A DNA stretch of 64,000 nt, taken from positions 576,001-640,000 of the forward strand of contig OY969622.1 in assembly GCA_963701665.1 (NCBI GenBank), in the 5' to 3' direction. A model generated the notes under the pieces. That model ran no database searches, was not told where the DNA came from, and saw nothing but the letters and a program-made list of their open reading frames with translations. The stretch comes from Candidatus Babeliales bacterium. GTDB lineage: Bacteria; Babelota; Babeliae; Babelales; JANWKD01. The first letter of the stretch is position 1; each line of letters begins with the position of its first letter. Of this stretch, positions 49,109-59,816 are shown piece by piece. The translations under genes and the position numbers were made by a program.

Positions 49109-51676
49109 ATGTCATTGGATTTTGCGTCAACACAAGCACTCACACCTTTAATGCAACAGTATTTTGAAATAAAAAATCAGTATGTCGATGCTTTGGTGCT
49201 CTTTCAAGTCGGTGATTTTTATGAACTGTTTTATGATGACGCAAAAAAAGCTGCAGCATGTCTTGCCATTGCGCTCACCGCGCGTGGAAAAAATAATGGC
49301 GAACCAATTCCTTTGTGTGGCGTGCCTGTGCATGCCATTAATCATTATCTAGCTAAATTGGTTTGCGCGGGCTTTAAGGTTGTGCTCTGTAATCAGCTTG
49401 AACCTGCAACGCCAGGAAAAGTTGTCGCACGCGGCGTGACGCAAGTTTTTTCGCCAGGTACGCTGACTGATGCAGCACTTCTCGATGAAAAAAAACCTTC
49501 CTATTTATTTTCTTTTTTTCCCGGAAATACGGCACATGCATTACTTTTTGGCGAATTGCTGACAGCACAATTATGGGCGACCACGATTGCTGCGAATAAT
49601 ACGTATCACGTTGAAACAGAGCTGCAGCGGTTTATGCCCGATGAAGTGTTGCTGCCCTCGATGAAAGAATCGAAAGAATTTGAAGCTTTTTTTAAAAAAT
49701 TAGGATATTACACGACAATCATTACACGCGATGATGAAGCGTATGCGCGCGCTACGCAGTGGATTTCGCCACTGCTTTCAAAAAAAAATGTGAATGGTCA
49801 TCATGACATTCTATATAATGCGCTCGCACAATTTCACTCGTATATAAAAACTTCGCACGCGGCATCGCTCGATCAATTTCAAACACTCGAGTTATATTCA
49901 CCACAAGAATTTTTAAGTATTGATAGTGCAACGCAAAGAAATCTTGAACTGGTAAAAAATATGCATGACGGCACGGTAAAAAATTCGTTATTTCACGTGA
50001 TGGATGGTGCTGTAACGGCGATGGGTTCCAGGACTATAAAAAAATGGATCGCGCGTCCGCTTATTGATCGCGAAGCCATTGTGCAACGTCAAGATGCGGT
50101 GGAACATTTTGTGTATCACGTTAGCTTTTTGCAAAAAATCCGCACGCTTTTACAACGCGTGGGAGATGCCGAGCGCATTATTGGGCGCATCATCGTCATG
50201 CGAGGGACTATTCATGATTATCGTTCGTTACTTTCTATCTTGGAAACATTGCCCTCGTTTGCTGCCGGTTTGTCAGATGCATCATTGCCGCTCTTATTGC
50301 GCATGATTGGTGCTCTGCTGCAACAAGCTGATTCGCTCGCGCACTATTTAGCCCAAGCACTTTCAATTGACAGTACGCAAGAATGGCTTATTGCGCCAAA
50401 GTTTGATGCACAGCTTGATGCGTATCGTTTGCTTGTTGAAAAAAGTACCCAGGTATTACTTGAATTTGAAAAACGTGAACAAGAGAAAACAAGAATCTCT
50501 TCACTCAAAGTTCGGTTTAATTCTGTGCATGGCTATTATATTGAAATTACGCATGCGAACGCTCATTTAGTTCCTACTGATTATATGCGCACACAAACGC
50601 TCGTTGGCAAAGAACGATACACAACACTCGAATTGAAAAAACTTGAAATCCAGGTGAATGAAGCGCGTGCCAACATTGATCAATTAGAAAAGAATATTTT
50701 CGCGCGTCTCAAAGCAGAAGTGCACGCGCATGCACCCACACTGCGTCGCATTGCGCGCGCGTTATCGCAGCTTGATGCATTATTTGGTTTGGCATATATC
50801 AGTTATGCACATGGTTTTATACGGCCGACTTTTAATGACACGGCGAATGTGAGCATCAAACAAGGTAAACATCCGGTGGTAAGTGCGCACGTGAAGACAC
50901 ATTTTATTCCTAATGATACGGCGCTTGATGATGAACACTCTCTGTGGATTATTACTGGTCCTAACATGGGTGGCAAATCAACCTACTTACGGCAGGTAGC
51001 ATTAATTAGCGTTATGGCACAATGTGGCTCATTCGTTCCCGCTGCTCATGCGGAGTTGCCGATTTTTGATAAAATTTTTTCACGCATAGGCGCAGGCGAT
51101 AATGTTGCTGCAGGAAAAAGTACCTTCTTAATGGAAATGGAAGAAACTGCATTTATCTGTGCACACGCAACGAACAAAAGTCTTGTAATTTTTGATGAAA
51201 TTGGGCGAGGGACGAGTACCTTTGATGGGCTTGCACTCGCGCAGGCTGTCCTTGAATATGTGCATACGGTGATACGCGCGCGGTGCCTTTTTGCAACCCA
51301 TTATCATGAATTAACGGCGTTGGCACATCAGTTGAAGGGTATTGTATGTTACCATGCTGCAAGTAAAAAAACGGCAACAGGTATCTCATTGCTTTATTCA
51401 ATTTTGCCAGGTTCTGCTGATGGCAGTTTTGGCATTGAAGTGGCAAAAATTGCTCACGTACCTGATATGATTATTCAGCGTGCGCAAGAACTTGTAACGC
51501 AATTAGGCATGCACGTGCCTACTGCATCGAGGGAACATGAAGCGAGTGCCGTAAAAGTGGATGCGCGTGCATCTGAGCTTTGCGCACTCGTTGAAAAAAT
51601 AGATTATAATAATTTGTCGCCTAAACACGCGTTTGATATTCTGTGGGCGATGAAAGAAATGGTTGAAAAAAAATGA
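49109..51676 (+). CDS. mutS: DNA mismatch repair protein MutS
   Basis: TPLMQQY, GDFYELF, GPNMGGKSTYLRQ, STFLMEM, DEIGRGTS, FATHYHEL. Confidence 0.97.
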   Translation: MSLDFASTQALTPLMQQYFEIKNQYVDALVLFQVGDFYELFYDDAKKAAACLAIALTARGKNNGEPIPLCGVPVHAINHYLAKLVCAGFKVVLCNQLEPATPGKVVARGVTQVFSPGTLTDAALLDEKKPSYLFSFFPGNTAHALLFGELLTAQLWATTIAANNTYHVETELQRFMPDEVLLPSMKESKEFEAFFKKLGYYTTIITRDDEAYARATQWISPLLSKKNVNGHHDILYNALAQFHSYIKTSHAASLDQFQTLELYSPQEFLSIDSATQRNLELVKNMHDGTVKNSLFHVMDGAVTAMGSRTIKKWIARPLIDREAIVQRQDAVEHFVYHVSFLQKIRTLLQRVGDAERIIGRIIVMRGTIHDYRSLLSILETLPSFAAGLSDASLPLLLRMIGALLQQADSLAHYLAQALSIDSTQEWLIAPKFDAQLDAYRLLVEKSTQVLLEFEKREQEKTRISSLKVRFNSVHGYYIEITHANAHLVPTDYMRTQTLVGKERYTTLELKKLEIQVNEARANIDQLEKNIFARLKAEVHAHAPTLRRIARALSQLDALFGLAYISYAHGFIRPTFNDTANVSIKQGKHPVVSAHVKTHFIPNDTALDDEHSLWIITGPNMGGKSTYLRQVALISVMAQCGSFVPAAHAELPIFDKIFSRIGAGDNVAAGKSTFLMEMEETAFICAHATNKSLVIFDEIGRGTSTFDGLALAQAVLEYVHTVIRARCLFATHYHELTALAHQLKGIVCYHAASKKTATGISLLYSILPGSADGSFGIEVAKIAHVPDMIIQRAQELVTQLGMHVPTASREHEASAVKVDARASELCALVEKIDYNNLSPKHAFDILWAMKEMVEKK

Positions 51677-51716: not shown

Positions 51717-52499
51717 TTATGAATTTACTGGGTATAGGGGTAATGCTGGCGTAGTTTGGGTTGGATTTTGCTCTCTGGGTGTATTTACTGGAATTTGCAG
51801 GTTATATTTGTAAATAATTAATTGACCCAGCGCATACGATATAAATTGTTGCTTTTTACTAGGTTCTGTTGGAGTTATAACGCCACCAACACCAATTTGT
51901 GCGGGAATATCAGTTAAAAGCAAGTCTGATTTAACCCATGAATGTGCTTGTTCTATAAAATCGCCGGCGTCTGAAATAAATTTGAAAGTTTTTCCAACAA
52001 TACCTTCATCAAAGCCTAAACCTTGACCTCTTTTAATACCTGCATACGTTTGGCCATTGTATAACCATGTTAACAATGTAATAAGCTTATCAACATCGTT
52101 TGAAGTTAAACGAACGATATTATTTACTGAAGGAATTCCTGCAAGTATATTTTCTAATTGTTGCACGGCTATCGTGTGAAGGCTCTTTAAACGAACGATC
52201 GCAATTTGCGCGTTCTGCAACTTAATGAGTGATGCAGATTTAATAGATTTTTCGATTTTGTCTAAGGCATCAATATAGGGTTGGTCACTGACTCCTTTTT
52301 GTGGCCCAGGAACCGGCTTCTGTTTAAAGATATCCCTTATAATTTTTTCTATATCAAGGGGCTTGTTTGGATTGCTGATAGGAGATGTTGGGATCTTATC
52401 AACGGTATAATTTGTAGGCGCTTCACCACCCTGAGCAAAAAGTGAATTTGCCATACAGAATGCCATTATGGCAGTTAAAGCTAGTAATTGATTCTTCAT
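51717..52499 (-). CDS. Secreted paralog family member 4
   Basis: Signal peptide; shared IKSASL..L and DVDKL..LL..LYNG...VG..F.FI..AG core. Confidence 0.8.
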   Translation of the reverse strand: MKNQLLALTAIMAFCMANSLFAQGGEAPTNYTVDKIPTSPISNPNKPLDIEKIIRDIFKQKPVPGPQKGVSDQPYIDALDKIEKSIKSASLIKLQNAQIAIVRLKSLHTIAVQQLENILAGIPSVNNIVRLTSNDVDKLITLLTWLYNGQTYAGIKRGQGLGFDEGIVGKTFKFISDAGDFIEQAHSWVKSDLLLTDIPAQIGVGGVITPTEPSKKQQFISYALGQLIIYKYNLQIPVNTPREQNPTQTTPALPLYPVNS

Positions 52500-52637
52500 T
52501 ATAAATCCTTTTTTTTCTTAAATTTAAATACAAAATAATTTTTTTTTCAAATAAGCATATGTTCAACGGTAGAAAGAATGAAGAGAGCGAGGGTTGGCTC
52601 GCTCTTTCATAAGAATACCGATTGATGGAGGAATATT

Positions 52638-53354
52638 TTATTTTCTTTGTGCGGCAGCTTTTGCTCTATCTTTAGCTTCTTGCATTTTTTTCTGTGCTGT
52701 CTTTTCTGAAATTGTTGGAAGATTGTTTTTGTAAATCTCTAACTTACCAATAGCAAATGCTATAAAGTGTTTCATTTTCTCTTCAGATGGCATTAAAACA
52801 CCACCACCGTGAGCAGCAATACCATCAGCTGGTAATAATGGTTTCAAGTGAGTGTGTAAGCTTTGCATAATATTTCCAGCGTTAGCGATGAATACAAAAA
52901 GTTTACCAACTTTACTTGTGTCTAATCCGGCAAGACTATAAAGAAGTGCATTAGCAGTTTCACCATTATATAATCTTGTTAATAATTTAGTAAGTTGATC
53001 AACTTCTCTGTCATCTAATTGAGCTTTATCAATTTGAGCATCTAATTGATTCATTGTACCCATAAATGATTCTTTTAATGTTGATCCTGCGATTGCTTCA
53101 TTCTTGAGGTTGGTTAATGACGCAGATTTGATACCACTTACAATTTTCTCAATATCACCAGCATTTACAGGCGGATTATAAACACCTGTTTTTCCTGGGA
53201 TAAGGGTTTGATTCCAAATTTGTTTAACATCTTGTGTAAGTTGCTTAGCTTCAAGAAGTTTGTTTGAGTCAAGTGGCTGTAAATTGAGCATAGCAACTGA
53301 GTTCGATGCAAATAATGCTAATAAAGCGGTTAAAACTAATAATTGTTTTTTCAT
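52638..53354 (-). CDS. Secreted paralog family member 3
   Basis: AAAGGA RBS before MKKQLL; first 70 aa identical to 53463..54263. Confidence 0.82.
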   Translation of the reverse strand: MKKQLLVLTALLALFASNSVAMLNLQPLDSNKLLEAKQLTQDVKQIWNQTLIPGKTGVYNPPVNAGDIEKIVSGIKSASLTNLKNEAIAGSTLKESFMGTMNQLDAQIDKAQLDDREVDQLTKLLTRLYNGETANALLYSLAGLDTSKVGKLFVFIANAGNIMQSLHTHLKPLLPADGIAAHGGGVLMPSEEKMKHFIAFAIGKLEIYKNNLPTISEKTAQKKMQEAKDRAKAAAQRK

Positions 53355-53462
53355 AGTAAATCCTTTTTTAATATACAGAATAAATTTTTTAAATAAGCAT
53401 ATGTTCAATGCTAGAAAGAATGAGGAGCGAAGGATTACCTCGCTCCTCATTAAGAAATACTG

Positions 53463-54263
53463 TTATTGATGAATAGTTTCTCCTGCAGCAGCTTTTGCTT
53501 TGTCTTTAGCTGCTTGCATTTCTTTCATTTGATCGATCATTGACTTTTCTGAAGCGGGCAGTTCGCTTTGTGCCTTTTCATAAGCCTTAGGTAAGCCTTT
53601 GTAAATAATTAATTTACCAATTACATAGGCAATATACTGTTGCATTTTGTTTTCCAAGGGGAAGGCGCGGGATGTTGGGGTCATAACGCCACCACCGTGA
53701 GCAGCAATACCATCAGCTGGTAATAATGGTTCTAAGTGAGTATGTAAGGTTTGAATAACGTTTGCACTATTAGCAATGAATGCAAAAAGTCTACCAACGG
53801 GACCTTCTTTAAATCCGGGCAATGGCTTGCCTCCTGGCATTGGATTGTTCATGATTGTATTAGCGCTATCGCCAAAATATAATCTTGTTAATGCAGCAGT
53901 AAGTAGATCAACTTCTTTTGCATTTAAATTCGCTTTGTCAATTTGAGCATCTAATTGATCAATGGTAGACATATATAATTCTTTTAATGTTGATGACGCT
54001 ATTGCCTCGTTCTTCAGGTTGATTAATGACGCAGATTTGATACCACTTACAAATTTCTCAATATCACCAGCATTTACAGGCGGATTATAAACACCTGTTT
54101 TTCCTGGGATAAGGGTTTGATTCCAAATTTGTTTAACATCTTGTGTAAGTTGCTTAGCTTCAAGAAGTTTGTTTGAGTCAAGTGGCTGTAAATTGAGCAT
54201 AGCAACTGAGTTCGATGCAAATAATGCTAATAAAGCGGTTAAAACTAATAATTGTTTCTTCAT
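53463..54263 (-). CDS. Secreted paralog family member 2
   Basis: MKKQLLVLTALLALFASNSVA|M; shared core. Confidence 0.82.
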   Translation of the reverse strand: MKKQLLVLTALLALFASNSVAMLNLQPLDSNKLLEAKQLTQDVKQIWNQTLIPGKTGVYNPPVNAGDIEKFVSGIKSASLINLKNEAIASSTLKELYMSTIDQLDAQIDKANLNAKEVDLLTAALTRLYFGDSANTIMNNPMPGGKPLPGFKEGPVGRLFAFIANSANVIQTLHTHLEPLLPADGIAAHGGGVMTPTSRAFPLENKMQQYIAYVIGKLIIYKGLPKAYEKAQSELPASEKSMIDQMKEMQAAKDKAKAAAGETIHQ

Positions 54264-54419
54264 AGTAAATCCTTTCTAATACATAAAATTTTTAATGGGC
54301 TATGAAACCCACAAAATAACGTTAAAAACAGCGTTTTTTGTCTATTAAGGGCAGAGTAGGCATTTTTTGGATAACCAAAGCAATCCAGTATCCCTATAAA
54401 TCCTTCTTTAGAGGGCTTA

Positions 54420-55035
54420 TAGTTATTATAAGGATAACTTAAAAAAGACCGTATTTTCAAGGGTTTTTAGGGATTTGCCCCCTATCATAAACAATACTAT
54501 GAAGGCAAGGTTTATTTCTGTTTTTGTTGGATAAATGGGGGTTTTTGAAGGGATTTCTTAGCGTTATTTTTATAGGACGCTAATGTATCAATTGCATGCT
54601 TTATAACATCTTTTTTAGGATTATCGTTAATGACACGAGGTTGTAAACTATAATTTCCTGCGGCAGCAATTAATGTAAAAAGTATGCCAACGTTACTTTC
54701 TCTGAACCCGAAGCTTTGCTTGTTAATAATAGATGAGTAGCTTGCACCGTTATATAACATTTTTAACACTTCGGTAAGCTTATCAATTTCATTTGAATTT
54801 AACATAGCGTGGCTAATTGCATTATCCATTTGCTCAGTAGCTTGAGCAACCACTGAATTAGCTGCAAATAATGTTAATAAAACAAGTAAGCCCAAGAGTA
54901 GTCTTTTCATGGTGAATCCTTTTTCTAAATAATTATTTATTCAAATTGAATTTTAGGGTTTTTGTTTTTATTATAAGGATAGCTGAAAAAGAGCCCTATT
55001 TTCAAGGGTTTTAGGGATTTATACCTACCATAAAA
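54420..55035 (-). repeat. Duplicated upstream/promoter block (about 54420-54490 and 54968-55035) for paralog-array genes
   Basis: Both copies read TTGAAA-N18-TATCCT on the minus strand, with conserved flanks. Confidence 0.55.
54512..54910 (-). CDS. Secreted paralog family member 1 (short, core domain only)
   Basis: Signal peptide; LNSNEIDKLTEVLKMLYNG...VGILFTLIAAAGN matches the family core. Confidence 0.75.
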   Translation of the reverse strand: MKRLLLGLLVLLTLFAANSVVAQATEQMDNAISHAMLNSNEIDKLTEVLKMLYNGASYSSIINKQSFGFRESNVGILFTLIAAAGNYSLQPRVINDNPKKDVIKHAIDTLASYKNNAKKSLQKPPFIQQKQK

Positions 55036-56002: not shown

Positions 56003-56966
56003 GAGCCTATCTGAAAACTCTAAGTACTTGAAAAAATAAATAAAAAAAATAAAATCCCTCTTGAAGTTATCACACAAACAAAAAGGGATTTTTTCATATG
56101 AAGCATTTAAATTACAAAGAAATGATACCATCAAAATATGTCATAATTTAAATTACAAAGAAATGATACCATCAAAATATGTCATATCTGACGAACTTTT
56201 ACAAGAATTTCATAACGTTATATCAACAAATATTCCACCAAGTAAAATAGGCCGGCCACGTTCTGATGATGGCCCATTAATTGCTGGGATATATTATTTG
56301 CTTAGAACAGGATGCCAATGGGATGCGCTTCCCAAGTGCTTTGGCCCCGCAAAGACTGTTTATCATAGATTTAGAGAATTGGTCAAAGCTAATGCTTTTC
56401 AAAAAATTTGGAAATCGGTTTTAACGCACTATGATCGAACCAAAGGACTTTGTCTTGAAAATCAATCTATGGATTCATGTCATAAAAAGGCTCCGCTTGG
56501 AGGAGATAAAACAGGGATCAGCCCGGTTGATAGAAGAAAATTAGGTTCAAAATTAAATCTTGTTGTAGAAGAATATGGACTACCTCTTGGTGCTACACTT
56601 GCAAGTGGAAATCGACATGACACGCAATTATTTGTTTCCCTTGTCGATAATTTACAGCATCAAATTCCACAATCAAGAAATCATTATCTTCGAACCGATA
56701 AGGGCTTTGTTTCTAAAAAAAATAAGGCAGAAGCTATTAAAAGAAACTTCACGCCTATCATGCCATTAAAAAAACCAAAAAATAAACCTCGAGTTACGCA
56801 AAAAAAAGATCCAATACGATGGGTCGTTGAAAGAACATTTTCTTGGATGAATCGATTCAGGCGTGTTTTTATTCGTTATGACAAGCTATCTAAAAATTTT
56901 CTTGGATTAGTTCAATTCGCTTGTCTAGTCATTGTTTTCAGAAAAATTTAGTTTTCAGACAGGCTC
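56003..56966 (+). mobile_element. IS5-family insertion sequence (IS1031-like), 964 bp
   Basis: 16-bp TIRs GAGCCTATCTGAAAAC / GTTTTCAGACAGGCTC (1 mismatch); TAA target duplication at 56000-56002 and 56967-56969. Confidence 0.93.
56098..56951 (+). CDS. IS5-family DDE transposase; native start frameshifted by a 41-bp tandem duplication (in-frame restart ATG 56163)
   Basis: GRPR, LRTGCQWDALP, TVYHRF, MDS, TDKGF, RWVVERTFSW..RFRR...RYDK. Confidence 0.9.
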
Positions 56967-57264
56967 TAAGTGTAAATTCGTTAGGATTTGTTACTGGAAC
57001 AAGTACTGTGAGTGCTGAAGTTCAACCTGGAGAAACTACTAACAAAGGTTTAAATGTAGGCGGAGGGAAATATGTCGACTTTGTTTATCTTGCAAAGCCA
57101 AATGGACAAAATCTTGAACAGATAGCTTATAAACCTGGGATGTATATTGGTGATAATAAATTCTGGCCACGCTTTAAGCCTAGCAATGGTGATTATACAT
57201 TTGTTCTTACTAAGAATGATGGCAAATGGAGCATCGAAACCCGTCGTTCTAAATAAGGATTGTT

Positions 57265-57681
57265 ATGAAAACTATAAAAATAATTGCTTTTACCGTACTA
57301 TTTTCTGCTATAAGCGGTAATGTATATTGTGCTTTATATACTGTGACTAATAATGGAACAGAAGCTGTGACAGTAAATCTTGATATAGTAAGTAAAGCTG
57401 GGTTTGGAACTATTCGACATGAAAAACCCTTAACTGTGGGACTTAATCCGGGAGATTCTACCAAGTTAAATGCATATGGAGGGAAATATTGCTACTCGAT
57501 TTCCCTTACAAAATCTGGTGAAAAAAATCTTTTGCCCTTAAATGTTAAGAGTATTGGATCAGGTGGGACTCTTAAAGATAATATATTATTTCCAAAATTT
57601 AGCCCTACTAATGCTGATTTTACAATTATTCTTACCAATAAGAAGAGCTCGTGGACTATTGAAACCCATCGTTCTAAATAG
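57265..57681 (+). CDS. Secreted beta-rich hypothetical protein
   Basis: AAGGA RBS, signal peptide; paralog of the IS-interrupted gene. Confidence 0.8.
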   Translation: MKTIKIIAFTVLFSAISGNVYCALYTVTNNGTEAVTVNLDIVSKAGFGTIRHEKPLTVGLNPGDSTKLNAYGGKYCYSISLTKSGEKNLLPLNVKSIGSGGTLKDNILFPKFSPTNADFTIILTNKKSSWTIETHRSK

Positions 57682-57683
57682 AT

Positions 57684-59276
57684 TTACGATGGCGTTAGAA
57701 AATTATAAGTGCCATACATACGGTGAATAACGGCCCTTTTCTGTTCAATAGTTAAAGCAGCCTTCAAGAGATCATCAAGATCTTCCATGAATGAACATTG
57801 ATCATGTTTTGGTAGATTGGTGACTTGCTTTTTCAATTCACTGATCCAAAATACTACAAAGCCAAGATCCATTGGCAATATCTCATCTGCATTAGTATAT
57901 TTATTCAACGTGCGATGAATTAGCCGTGTGCAGTTTTTTAACGGTAGAATATTTCTCTTGTTGATATAATGAAGTGTTTCCTTACTAGCATTGTATACTA
58001 ATTTGCCAATAATGAACGTCGGAACGAGGGCAAATAATTCTATAATAAGCTGGTTTGAGCGCAGATTTTTTACCATAAGATTATATGTCTTAATACCGTT
58101 GTTTACCAGCTCTGTTACCTGTGTTTTAGCATGCAAGACTTCAATTTCTAGTGTTTGTGGTAATTCTCCGTACAGCGTATTCTTAATAGGATTCTTCATA
58201 TATTCATTTCTGTCATGTATAACCTGTGGAATATGCCCGTTATTTGCGTCTTCGATTTCTTTTTCTATATCGTATTCACTGACGGTTCCAGAAATATGGT
58301 TTCTTGTAAAAAGATAGTCACGCATTTTCCTGAGATAATACCATGTACCTCCCCAAATGCCCTTTGCTTCTTCGTTTTGATTGAGGTGTTTTCTATATGC
58401 TCTTATGCGGTCATTTCTTGCTTCACGCTCAATTTCTACCGTTTGGTCATCAACGGGGCTGCTCTCCATATATTGCGAATTATCAGTGAGTATGTCTACA
58501 GAATTAGCAATAGGATCGTGAACATGGCTGTGCCAATAATTATCTAAAGCGGTCGTTGCTTTTGCATACCATTCTTTAATATTTTTTTGGTTGCGAAAAG
58601 CATAGACAGCCAAGGCCACCGTGCTAGCGGTTAGCGCGGAATAGGCAAGCCAATTTCGTCTGAAATGATTTGGTTTTTTGTATCCTTGGTAGGCGTCGCA
58701 CATACGATAATAAAATGTGTTCAGATTTTTTTGATTGCTGACAAGCAACTGAGACCATTGTTGTTGTGACGTTTCTTGGTACGGTAAAACAATATCATAT
58801 GGTTGCGCGTGTTCTGGCGAAACGCAGCTGTGAACGAGTGAGAGTAGTTCACGCATATATTTTTCAATATCATACGCGCTTTCTGCATGATAATTTTTTA
58901 TTAAATAATAATGGATTCGCCCGAGATAATAGGCATTTTTTTCAAGTGCCTTTTTTAAAAAAACTATTTTTTCATAAAGTTCCTGCTCTTGGGCCTTATC
59001 GGTGAACCATGCGGCCGGGCCCTTAGAAATAAAATAGCTAAAGGTGGTTAACTGCTGAAGATTCCAATAATCCATGTCTTCTGAGAGTTCATGAAGCAGT
59101 CTCTGGAGAATTTCTTTAAGTTCTTCTGCTTGATTGCAGCACTGATGAACAAATTCAAAATTGACCTGGTTAGCCAGAGTTATAGTGAGTAGGGGGGCTG
59201 GGGCTTCAAGGGTGTAGGTCATAGAGGGGGATAATAGGAGGACGGCAATGAGTGATTGTTTCAATAAAGTAATCAT
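57684..59276 (-). CDS. NCA2/DGS1-like protein (eukaryotic mitochondrial membrane protein family) with signal peptide
   Basis: Colinear motifs YW...YFISKGP, KKP..FRRNW..Y+TM, W..HV.DPI, NPIKNTLYGEL...L.I.V...K, LRSNQL...L.ALVP+TM, DL.DL......EQK..VI.RM...Y.FL match the family as I recall it. Confidence 0.65.
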   Translation of the reverse strand: MITLLKQSLIAVLLLSPSMTYTLEAPAPLLTITLANQVNFEFVHQCCNQAEELKEILQRLLHELSEDMDYWNLQQLTTFSYFISKGPAAWFTDKAQEQELYEKIVFLKKALEKNAYYLGRIHYYLIKNYHAESAYDIEKYMRELLSLVHSCVSPEHAQPYDIVLPYQETSQQQWSQLLVSNQKNLNTFYYRMCDAYQGYKKPNHFRRNWLAYSALTASTVALAVYAFRNQKNIKEWYAKATTALDNYWHSHVHDPIANSVDILTDNSQYMESSPVDDQTVEIEREARNDRIRAYRKHLNQNEEAKGIWGGTWYYLRKMRDYLFTRNHISGTVSEYDIEKEIEDANNGHIPQVIHDRNEYMKNPIKNTLYGELPQTLEIEVLHAKTQVTELVNNGIKTYNLMVKNLRSNQLIIELFALVPTFIIGKLVYNASKETLHYINKRNILPLKNCTRLIHRTLNKYTNADEILPMDLGFVVFWISELKKQVTNLPKHDQCSFMEDLDDLLKAALTIEQKRAVIHRMYGTYNFLTPS

Positions 59277-59453
59277 AAAAACCCTTTTTACTTATTCCAA
59301 TAGGGTAAAATAGAAGCTCTAAATCCTACTATATCATAAAATGACCATTATTTCTAAAGGGTATTGCTCTGGTATTCTAGACAGAACGCGCTAATATGAT
59401 AAACTTACTATAAAATTGATCATATATTTAAAGTAATTCCAAAAGGAAATTTG

Positions 59454-59816
59454 ATGGCAACAGATAAAGCTGATAAGAAAAAATCAGAAAAAACAGCATC
59501 GTTGTTTCCTCGTTATGCTATTTTTCAAACGGGCGGTAAACAGTATCAAGCAATTGAAGGAAAAACAATTGCGATAGAAAAAATTGAAGGCGATGCAGGT
59601 TCAACTATAGAATTTAGCGACGTACTTTTAAGAAAAACAGGCGATAGCGACATTCAAGTAGGGCAACCATTCCTCAAAGCCCCTATCAAAGCTTCCATCG
59701 TAAAACAGATGCGCGGGCCAAAAGTCGTGATTTTCAAGTTTAAACGCCGTAAAAAGTCACGCGTTAAAAAGGGTCATCGCCAGTCAATTACCGTGATCCG
59801 CATCGAAGCTATCTAA
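59454..59816 (+). CDS. rplU: 50S ribosomal protein L21
   Basis: YAIFQTGGKQY, VGQPFL, KVVIFKFKRRK..R.KKGHRQ..T. Confidence 0.96.
   Translation: MATDKADKKKSEKTASLFPRYAIFQTGGKQYQAIEGKTIAIEKIEGDAGSTIEFSDVLLRKTGDSDIQVGQPFLKAPIKASIVKQMRGPKVVIFKFKRRKKSRVKKGHRQSITVIRIEAI

Follow-up and report, generated by a model that had tools for sequence, protein, structure and literature searches.

The window, meaning the whole stretch of 64 000 nucleotides that was analysed, carries on its minus strand an ORF whose product had been likened to the NCA2/DGS1 proteins of eukaryotic mitochondria. The ORF encodes 530 amino acids and has an ATG start with AAGGG five bases 5' of it, and all the NCA2/DGS1 motifs listed in the original prediction were found in its translation, in the order claimed. 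The gene and the parts of its product are as follows.

57684..59276, minus strand: NCA2/DGS1-family gene (ORF, PF08637, BLASTP and profile-profile alignment)
59211..59276, minus strand: predicted Sec-type signal peptide, about residues 1-22, with no lipobox (heuristic; absent from the eukaryotic homologues compared)
58683..59159, minus strand: N-terminal helical domain, residues 40-198, with conserved YW70-71, P87-x-x-W90 and LG118-119 (AlphaFold model, conservation over 228 bacterial rows, eukaryote alignment)
58596..58679, minus strand: KKPxHFxRxWxxY motif and first, weakly hydrophobic predicted membrane segment, residues 200-227 (conservation, hydropathy)
58050..58589, minus strand: middle domain between the membrane segments, residues 230-409 (hypervariable in Babelota, where it is also exchanged, and conserved in eukaryotes)
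57993..58049, minus strand: second predicted membrane segment, residues 410-428, with conserved P419 (conservation, hydropathy)
57687..57980, minus strand: C-terminal four-helix domain, residues 433-530, with G472, D499, QK512-513, M520 and Y524 (AlphaFold model, conservation)

The Pfam NCA2 model (PF08637), proposed as the first check, matched the protein at 78.1 bits (E 8.4e-22, cut-off 20.6), residues 221-524 lying on profile positions 7-289 of 289; the same model matched 44 of 79 aligned relatives at E <= 0.001, and no other Pfam family matched. By BLASTP the window protein was 25% identical over 351 columns (E 1e-24) to P0140, Willaertia magna KAL9643436.1, a eukaryotic family member named by NCBI. 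Profile-profile alignment (hhalign) of 33 bacterial with five eukaryotic proteins, three of which came from the bacterial profile search, gave a probability of 100 and an E value of 1.6e-54 over 453 columns. Residues 32-530 were aligned to the eukaryotic profile, which extends the homology to the N-terminal part that the Pfam model leaves out. Two homologues matched only NCA2/DGS1 clusters in the Atlas, at 0.93-0.96; the rows shown were all eukaryotic and the clusters are named 'Protein DGS1, mitochondrial'. These comparisons confirm the ORF as a full-length NCA2/DGS1 homologue, and the predicted homology was right over its whole length; judged from sequence, the tie to yeast Nca2 and Arabidopsis DGS1 in particular rests on Pfam and Atlas cluster names. 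In yeast the family is linked to ATP-synthase subunits, a tie reflected in its Pfam name. The attribution to Babelota was also correct, a close homologue (57% identical, gene order the same) coming from a Candidatus Babeliales bacterium. Scanning of the locus for promoters and terminators gave matches at or near chance level.

The best-conserved positions over the 228 bacterial rows were W71, G119, P202, R207, W209, P255, P419, G472, D499 and K513, and these ten residues were identical in all five eukaryotic rows; W71, P87 and G119 of the N-terminal domain are common to bacteria and eukaryotes. Besides P255 and P419, the strongly conserved positions fall in the two terminal bundles and in the motif that precedes the first segment. 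Hydrophobic segments were predicted at residues 209-227 (Kyte-Doolittle 19-mer mean 1.42, weak) and 410-428 (1.98), and they align with the eukaryotic ones and flank the middle domain. Against the textbook mark of 1.6, the first segment had a median of 1.06 in bacteria (12 of 97 reach the mark) and 0.75 in eukaryotes, the second 1.57 (46 of 97) and 1.82; the best helices of TrkH and PgsA, taken for comparison, score 2.0-2.8. Mean net charge was +1.4 before the first segment and +2.2 after the second, with +0.7 and +0.2 on the middle side. Such positive charge on the N- and C-terminal sides is the reverse of that expected, under the textbook positive-inside rule, for an inner-membrane protein with an exported N-terminus.

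AlphaFold modelled the window protein as all-helical with a mean pLDDT of 83. The Atlas model of P0146, the Ca. Chromulinivorax destructor homologue considered below, gave TM 0.52/0.49 against a plant cluster model (383 residues aligned), below the naming bar, the next row scoring 0.30; homologue P0157 gave no such plant-cluster row. No significant match was found in PDB sequences, Foldseek PDB or viral models, and the PDB searches turned up no solved structure for the family. The best VIA-align matches (Z 9.1 and 8.4), considered as a clue to function, were rejected as generic helical bundles, these being comparisons of whole models, and a fold prediction for a eukaryotic member (pLDDT 56) was left out of the comparisons.

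Strong matches (E 5e-23 or better) were present in 100 of 261 Babelota genomes, ~38%. The Pfam model found 64 genomes, a first profile 101 and a second 108, eight of which were dropped from the count as weak partial matches near 1e-4. By family, strong matches occurred in f1 (5/5), f3 (15/16), f5 (14/14), f7 (1/1), f10 (1/1), f12 (10/10), f16 (2/2), f18 (11/12), f20 (2/4) and f21 (39/80), and were found in 0/41 genomes of f2, 0/35 of f17 and none of nine small families. Divergent homologues hidden in the negative families were considered and rejected, the second profile round having added just the eight weak partial matches. The rplU and mutS neighbourhoods of four f2 genomes held no homologue, gene order being different there, and the f21 slot before ssb was empty or occupied by an unrelated ORF in 4/4 negative genomes examined; a 455-aa ORF in this slot of G197, tried as a family member, was unrelated.

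Outside Babelota, coverage extended to 14 control genomes, a narrow-pattern scan of 185,579 genomes, plasmids, phages and viral contigs. The Pfam model had 0 matches in the 14 control genomes, and the scan of 185,579 genomes, made with a low-power pattern, yielded one locus. Profile searching returned 1,594 matching representatives, 386 of them at E <= 1e-30, and all named or placed bacterial members were Babelota among the matches listed (150 of 1,594). The Babelota are obligate parasites of eukaryotes. P0168, from a MAG labelled Epsilonproteobacteria, clusters at 90% with a protein that shares 96% identity with one from G074, and its MAG is probably misclassified.

Loci from 90 of the 100 positive genomes were examined for their neighbourhoods. 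The gene is adjoined by rplU and/or mutS in 31/33 loci of f1, f3, f7, f10, f12 and f16 and by ybeY in 14/14 f5 loci, while ssb lies downstream in 32/34 f21 loci, eight of which have tandem gene copies. A pgsA-like CDP-alcohol phosphatidyltransferase also stands beside the gene in f21. Neighbours of 470 and 415 aa were found in 9/9 loci of f18/f20, and in one locus these are phosphomannomutase and seryl-tRNA synthetase. Two of these neighbours are retained in the window.

59451..59816, plus strand: rplU (L21), divergent conserved neighbour, context (Pfam, relatives' gene order)
49109..51676, plus strand: mutS, convergent neighbour in relatives, here 6 kb off behind inserted genes, context (Pfam, relatives' gene order)

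The gene tree followed the families. On a FastTree tree of 97 bacterial and five eukaryotic rows, the 11 group labels required no more than the minimum of 10 changes; on a mixture-model tree of 46 rows, its deep branches poorly resolved, 12 groups required 14 changes where 11 is the minimum. Close pairs were under purifying selection (for example, G258/G259, pN 0.02-0.04 versus pS 0.29-0.39). Fixed neighbourhoods, a family-following tree and purifying selection together mark an old, inherited, functional gene with losses; it is mostly single-copy and inherited within many Babelota families. The tandem duplicates were seen at the f21 loci L041, L042, L044, L045, L046, L051, L056 and L058, and in genus g143 the two tandem copies fall in separate clades.

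Phylogeny had been put forward as the check on the direction of transfer. It did part bacteria from eukaryotes, the five eukaryotic proteins lying on one side of a single branch (SH-aLRT 96), but the tree is unrooted and does not give the direction. The stem is short (0.43) compared with tip branches of 1-2.6, which suggests that the split between bacteria and eukaryotes is about as deep as the radiation of the Babelota families. The eukaryotic sample in the tree represents three lineages; a search of eukaryotes yielded three heteroloboseans, together with a fragment that contains an intron and is spread over two contigs, which was left out. The family is present in Discoba, fungi and plants and so predates their split, and with the named bacterial members being Babelota, transfer from host to parasite is the economical reading. 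The gene was likely acquired from a eukaryotic host, and long ago. A natively bacterial gene, given by a Babelota-like parasite to a stem eukaryote and then retargeted to the mitochondrial outer membrane, appears improbable: it would suit a split as deep as the Babelota radiation (SH-aLRT 96, stem 0.43, unrooted) and the large bacterial diversity (386 representatives at E <= 1e-30), but the named or placed bacterial members among the matches listed are all Babelota, parasites of eukaryotes, the family is older than the split of Discoba, fungi and plants, and fast evolution accounts for the long bacterial branches. Rotifera was the commonest known phylum in the top Atlas NCA2 cluster. Orthologues of DGS1 are absent from metazoans according to a review, and the rotifer entries possibly reflect transfer into rotifers or contamination.

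The label itself is not new in this phylum, where it sits uncommented in automatic annotations. In a Dependentiae genome, OQA35210.1 bears the NCBI name 'ATP synthase regulation protein NCA2', and the label appears for two of seven genomes, SOIL31 and SOIL82, in one of the two files of Table S5 of PMC4776705. A search of the open literature (subscription papers lay outside its scope) found no paper with both NCA2 and a Babelota name, and the main texts of PMC6561590, PMC4776705, PMC4378268 (and nine supplements) and PMC12872458 do not mention NCA2. According to reviews, DGS1 bridges TOM40/20 and Mic60 at the outer membrane and affects lipids and cristae; background on the family and the organisms was drawn from parts of PMC7050145, PMC7865480, PMC10069894, PMC8154082, PMC9981465 and PMC12172432.

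It had been pointed out that one Babelota species associates with host mitochondria, and that species does encode a family member. P0146 is WP_115585725.1 of Ca. Chromulinivorax destructor, annotated 'hypothetical protein'; it was absent from the query alignment that found it and matched the profile at E 5.8e-55, and is over the Pfam cut-off. This organism is described as lying free in the host cytoplasm, shedding vesicles and being wrapped by the mitochondrion (PMC6561590). In a comparison of three isolates, the wrapping is termed 'unique to C. destructans'. Deeg et al. 2019 (PMC6561590) proposed a mitofilin-like CDS as the candidate for mitochondrion remodelling by C. destructans. Mitofilin/Mic60 reached the Pfam cut-off in 0/261 Babelota genomes, which gave 11 weak partial matches, and the published 'mitofilin-like' candidate is thus unconfirmed by that cut-off. 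The NCA2-like protein shares species and proposed role with this CDS but is the product of a different gene, whose homology to its family is strong.

The part of the protein between the membrane segments behaved differently from the rest. Over residues 346-409 identity was 32.5% among three distant eukaryotes, a small sample, but 10.7% between bacterial families and 12.3% between bacteria and eukaryotes, whereas the terminal domains and membrane segments were about equally conserved in all comparisons. Among eukaryotic pairs the middle domain was the highest or tied in 9/10. Among pairs of genomes from the same family, which are non-independent, it fell below both flanks in 38/45 and was at or above the flank mean in 5/45. 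The window protein and P0002 are 96/32/89% identical (N-terminal/middle/C-terminal), while the window protein and the more distant P0003 are 58/58/57% identical; G164 and G165, with neighbour genes 97-98% identical, gave 84/23/79% (pS 0.31/0.56/0.16). Two close pairs sharing a middle type were 93-96% alike there, G098/G101 being 96% with pN/pS 0.03/0.51.

Conflicting trees were obtained in genus g143, where the test groups were chosen after pairwise identities were known. G254 and P0095 were sisters on the flanks (85/88), a grouping rejected on the middle domain (p-AU 1e-29). The flanks in turn rejected (p-AU 0.036) a clade of four that the middle domain gave (98/95). For the window's genus, the middle-domain tree did not reject P0001 and P0002 as sisters (p-AU 0.35), so that a burst on one branch or an unsampled donor may be responsible there. 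Silent cassette copies of the middle domain were found nowhere else in the own genome. The middle domain therefore turns over in jumps, and by recombination in at least one genus. The decay in bacteria of residues 346-409, conserved in eukaryotes, makes it unlikely that the protein is a straight mimic binding the partners of DGS1 through its middle domain; loss of the motif lowers the case for its working exactly as DGS1 does, not that for homology. Also against a simple mimic are the absence of a Mic60 match over the cut-off in 261 genomes and the report of wrapping for one isolate of three.

The N-terminus was scored for signal-like character by a heuristic, which was positive for the window protein, for 90/97 family ORFs and for 0/6 eukaryotic proteins. 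The same heuristic passed 0/25 RplU, 0/34 Ssb, 0/14 YbeY and 1/8 TrkA control proteins, and also 333/650 ORFs of at least 250 aa in the window genome, where signal-like starts are common. The start of P0146 is hydrophobic but fails for want of a basic residue. Lipoboxes were absent from the window protein and seen at 4/97 loci and in 1/150 of the listed family proteins. The window genome (93.6% complete) encodes two secretins and four ATP/ADP translocases, and gave no match for a ketoacyl synthase.

Full-length homology, a predicted export signal and a fast-changing middle domain suggest that the protein likely works where the parasite meets host membranes. The leading reading, to which we give a rough probability of 0.4, is an old acquisition from eukaryotes that is exported to the membranes of host mitochondria, where it would act in contact or lipid access. 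The added signal peptide would send the protein through Sec, weak hydrophobicity and the charge pattern, both shared with the eukaryotic proteins, would keep it from settling in the bacterial inner membrane, and it would leave by type II secretion or outer-membrane vesicles. Its two-helix anchor would insert in the outer membrane of the host mitochondrion. The family's core job, holding membranes together or moving lipid, would fall to the conserved N- and C-terminal bundles, and the middle domain would be the replaceable part that meets variable host factors. A membrane-contact or lipid job would be of use to a parasite that takes in ATP and lacks fatty-acid synthesis.

This reading draws on the homology and invariant residues, the signal-like N-terminus and the reversed charge bias. 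The secretins and ATP/ADP translocases, without a ketoacyl synthase match, and the reported vesicles are consistent with it, as are the member in a mitochondrion-wrapped species, the TOM40/20-Mic60 bridging by DGS1, and a middle domain less alike than its flanks in 38/45 pairs and yet 93-96% alike within shared types. It is weakened by the frequency of signal-like starts (333/650 long ORFs), by the decay of 346-409 in bacteria, and by wrapping in one of three isolates when the gene occurs in ten families. The second segment, at 1.98 in the window protein and reaching 1.6 in 46/97, makes inner-membrane retention possible. Single copies in stable housekeeping neighbourhoods are commoner for core genes than for effectors, and in this respect the gene looks more core-gene-like than effector-like. 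An old, mostly single-copy gene, a decayed motif and wrapping in one isolate weigh against an effector, and the 'mitochondrion-manipulating effector' of the original prediction is an inference, one that fits the predicted export signal and the fast-changing middle domain.

The close rival, rather unlikely in itself, is that the protein stays in the bacterial envelope, with its bundles periplasmic and its middle domain displayed on the surface. There it would fasten the parasite to host membranes or acquire lipid, and would vary like a surface receptor under pressure from host or phage. The predicted signal-like N-terminus and the stable single-copy inheritance speak for it, and no path into a host membrane is required. 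Exposed loops of surface proteins come in deep, exchangeable types, which the middle types resemble. We know of no general bacterial machinery that inserts two alpha-helices into the outer membrane, which counts against such display, and lipoboxes are few (4/97 loci, 1/150 listed proteins). The 261 genomes also hold no mitofilin/Mic60 match over the cut-off, and so no bacterial MICOS-like partner. TM6 genomes are described as being without fatty-acid synthesis, with the host-lipid route left unresolved (PMC4776705), which favours this rival.

Least probable of the three is an inner-membrane housekeeping protein concerned with lipid balance, envelope contact or ATP-synthase assembly, its middle domain weakly constrained. 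Retention is the default fate of a signal peptide with two hydrophobic helices, a pgsA-like gene adjoins in f21, and the Pfam name ties the family to ATP synthase, which TM6 genomes keep (PMC4776705); but relaxed constraint accounts neither for 96/32/89% beside 58/58/57% when a more distant pair is compared, nor for a shared middle domain with pN/pS 0.03/0.51, nor for the conflicting trees. The charge bias opposes the topology needed, 161/261 genomes, including the whole of f2 and f17, have no strong match, and in 4/4 negative genomes examined the f21 slot has no ORF or an unrelated one. The neighbours differ by family, so that the pgsA link is not general.

Comparison with known systems shows where the Babelota protein departs from its relatives. 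It shares with the NCA2/DGS1 family (PF08637; yeast Nca2, Arabidopsis DGS1) full-length homology, domain order, the invariant N- and C-side residues and a pair of segments that are moderately hydrophobic and have a like charge bias. Unlike them it is bacterial, adds a predicted signal-peptide-like N-terminus, has a hypervariable and exchanged middle domain in place of one that is the most conserved part in eukaryotes, and comes from genomes encoding no Mic60 partner over the cut-off (261 genomes). Babela has ankyrin and Ulp1-like eukaryote-like proteins with predicted secretion signals, as described in PMC4378268. With these, with the mitochondrial carriers of Babela and with Legionella effectors, it has in common a eukaryotic family, an intracellular bacterium and a predicted secretion signal (PMC4378268, in part). 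It differs in being one old gene, in 100/261 genomes and fixed neighbourhoods, with no lineage-specific expansion, and in probably deriving from an organelle membrane-contact protein.

It is possible, and on balance unlikely, that a host contact-site protein has been turned into a phylum-wide exported anchoring chassis, with a host-tuned middle module, that draws in the mitochondrion and opens a lipid route. If so, it would be the first bacterial mimic of a MICOS-associated protein and a simple system for finding what NCA2/DGS1 does. One gene makes two questions testable, the remodelling of the mitochondrion by Chromulinivorax and the lipid supply of Babelota. The ~100 diverged bacterial versions mark invariant N- and C-side residues and show the middle to be replaceable, which can guide mutagenesis in yeast and plants. 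The interest of the family lies in its phylum-wide age, its presence in a mitochondrion-wrapping species and its exchangeable middle domain.

Several further features were observed beside the gene. The gap between mutS and the NCA2-like gene is occupied at 51717-54910 (minus strand) by four ORFs in tandem, whose starts are signal-like and which fit no Pfam family convincingly. Two of them are 68% identical with their first 70 residues identical; the closest relative has one 283-aa gene there. An IS5-type transposase (56061-56951, plus strand) lies near the 3' end of the NCA2-like gene, and in a further genome of this family a very similar one directly adjoins the gene (L017, 609-1421). Two short related ORFs of 111 and 138 aa, with no Pfam match, lie at 56921-57681 (plus strand), and both end in similar FP-F-P-N-D-T--LT---KWSIET-RSK tails. 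The end of the transposase overlaps with the 111-aa ORF, which may be a truncated copy.
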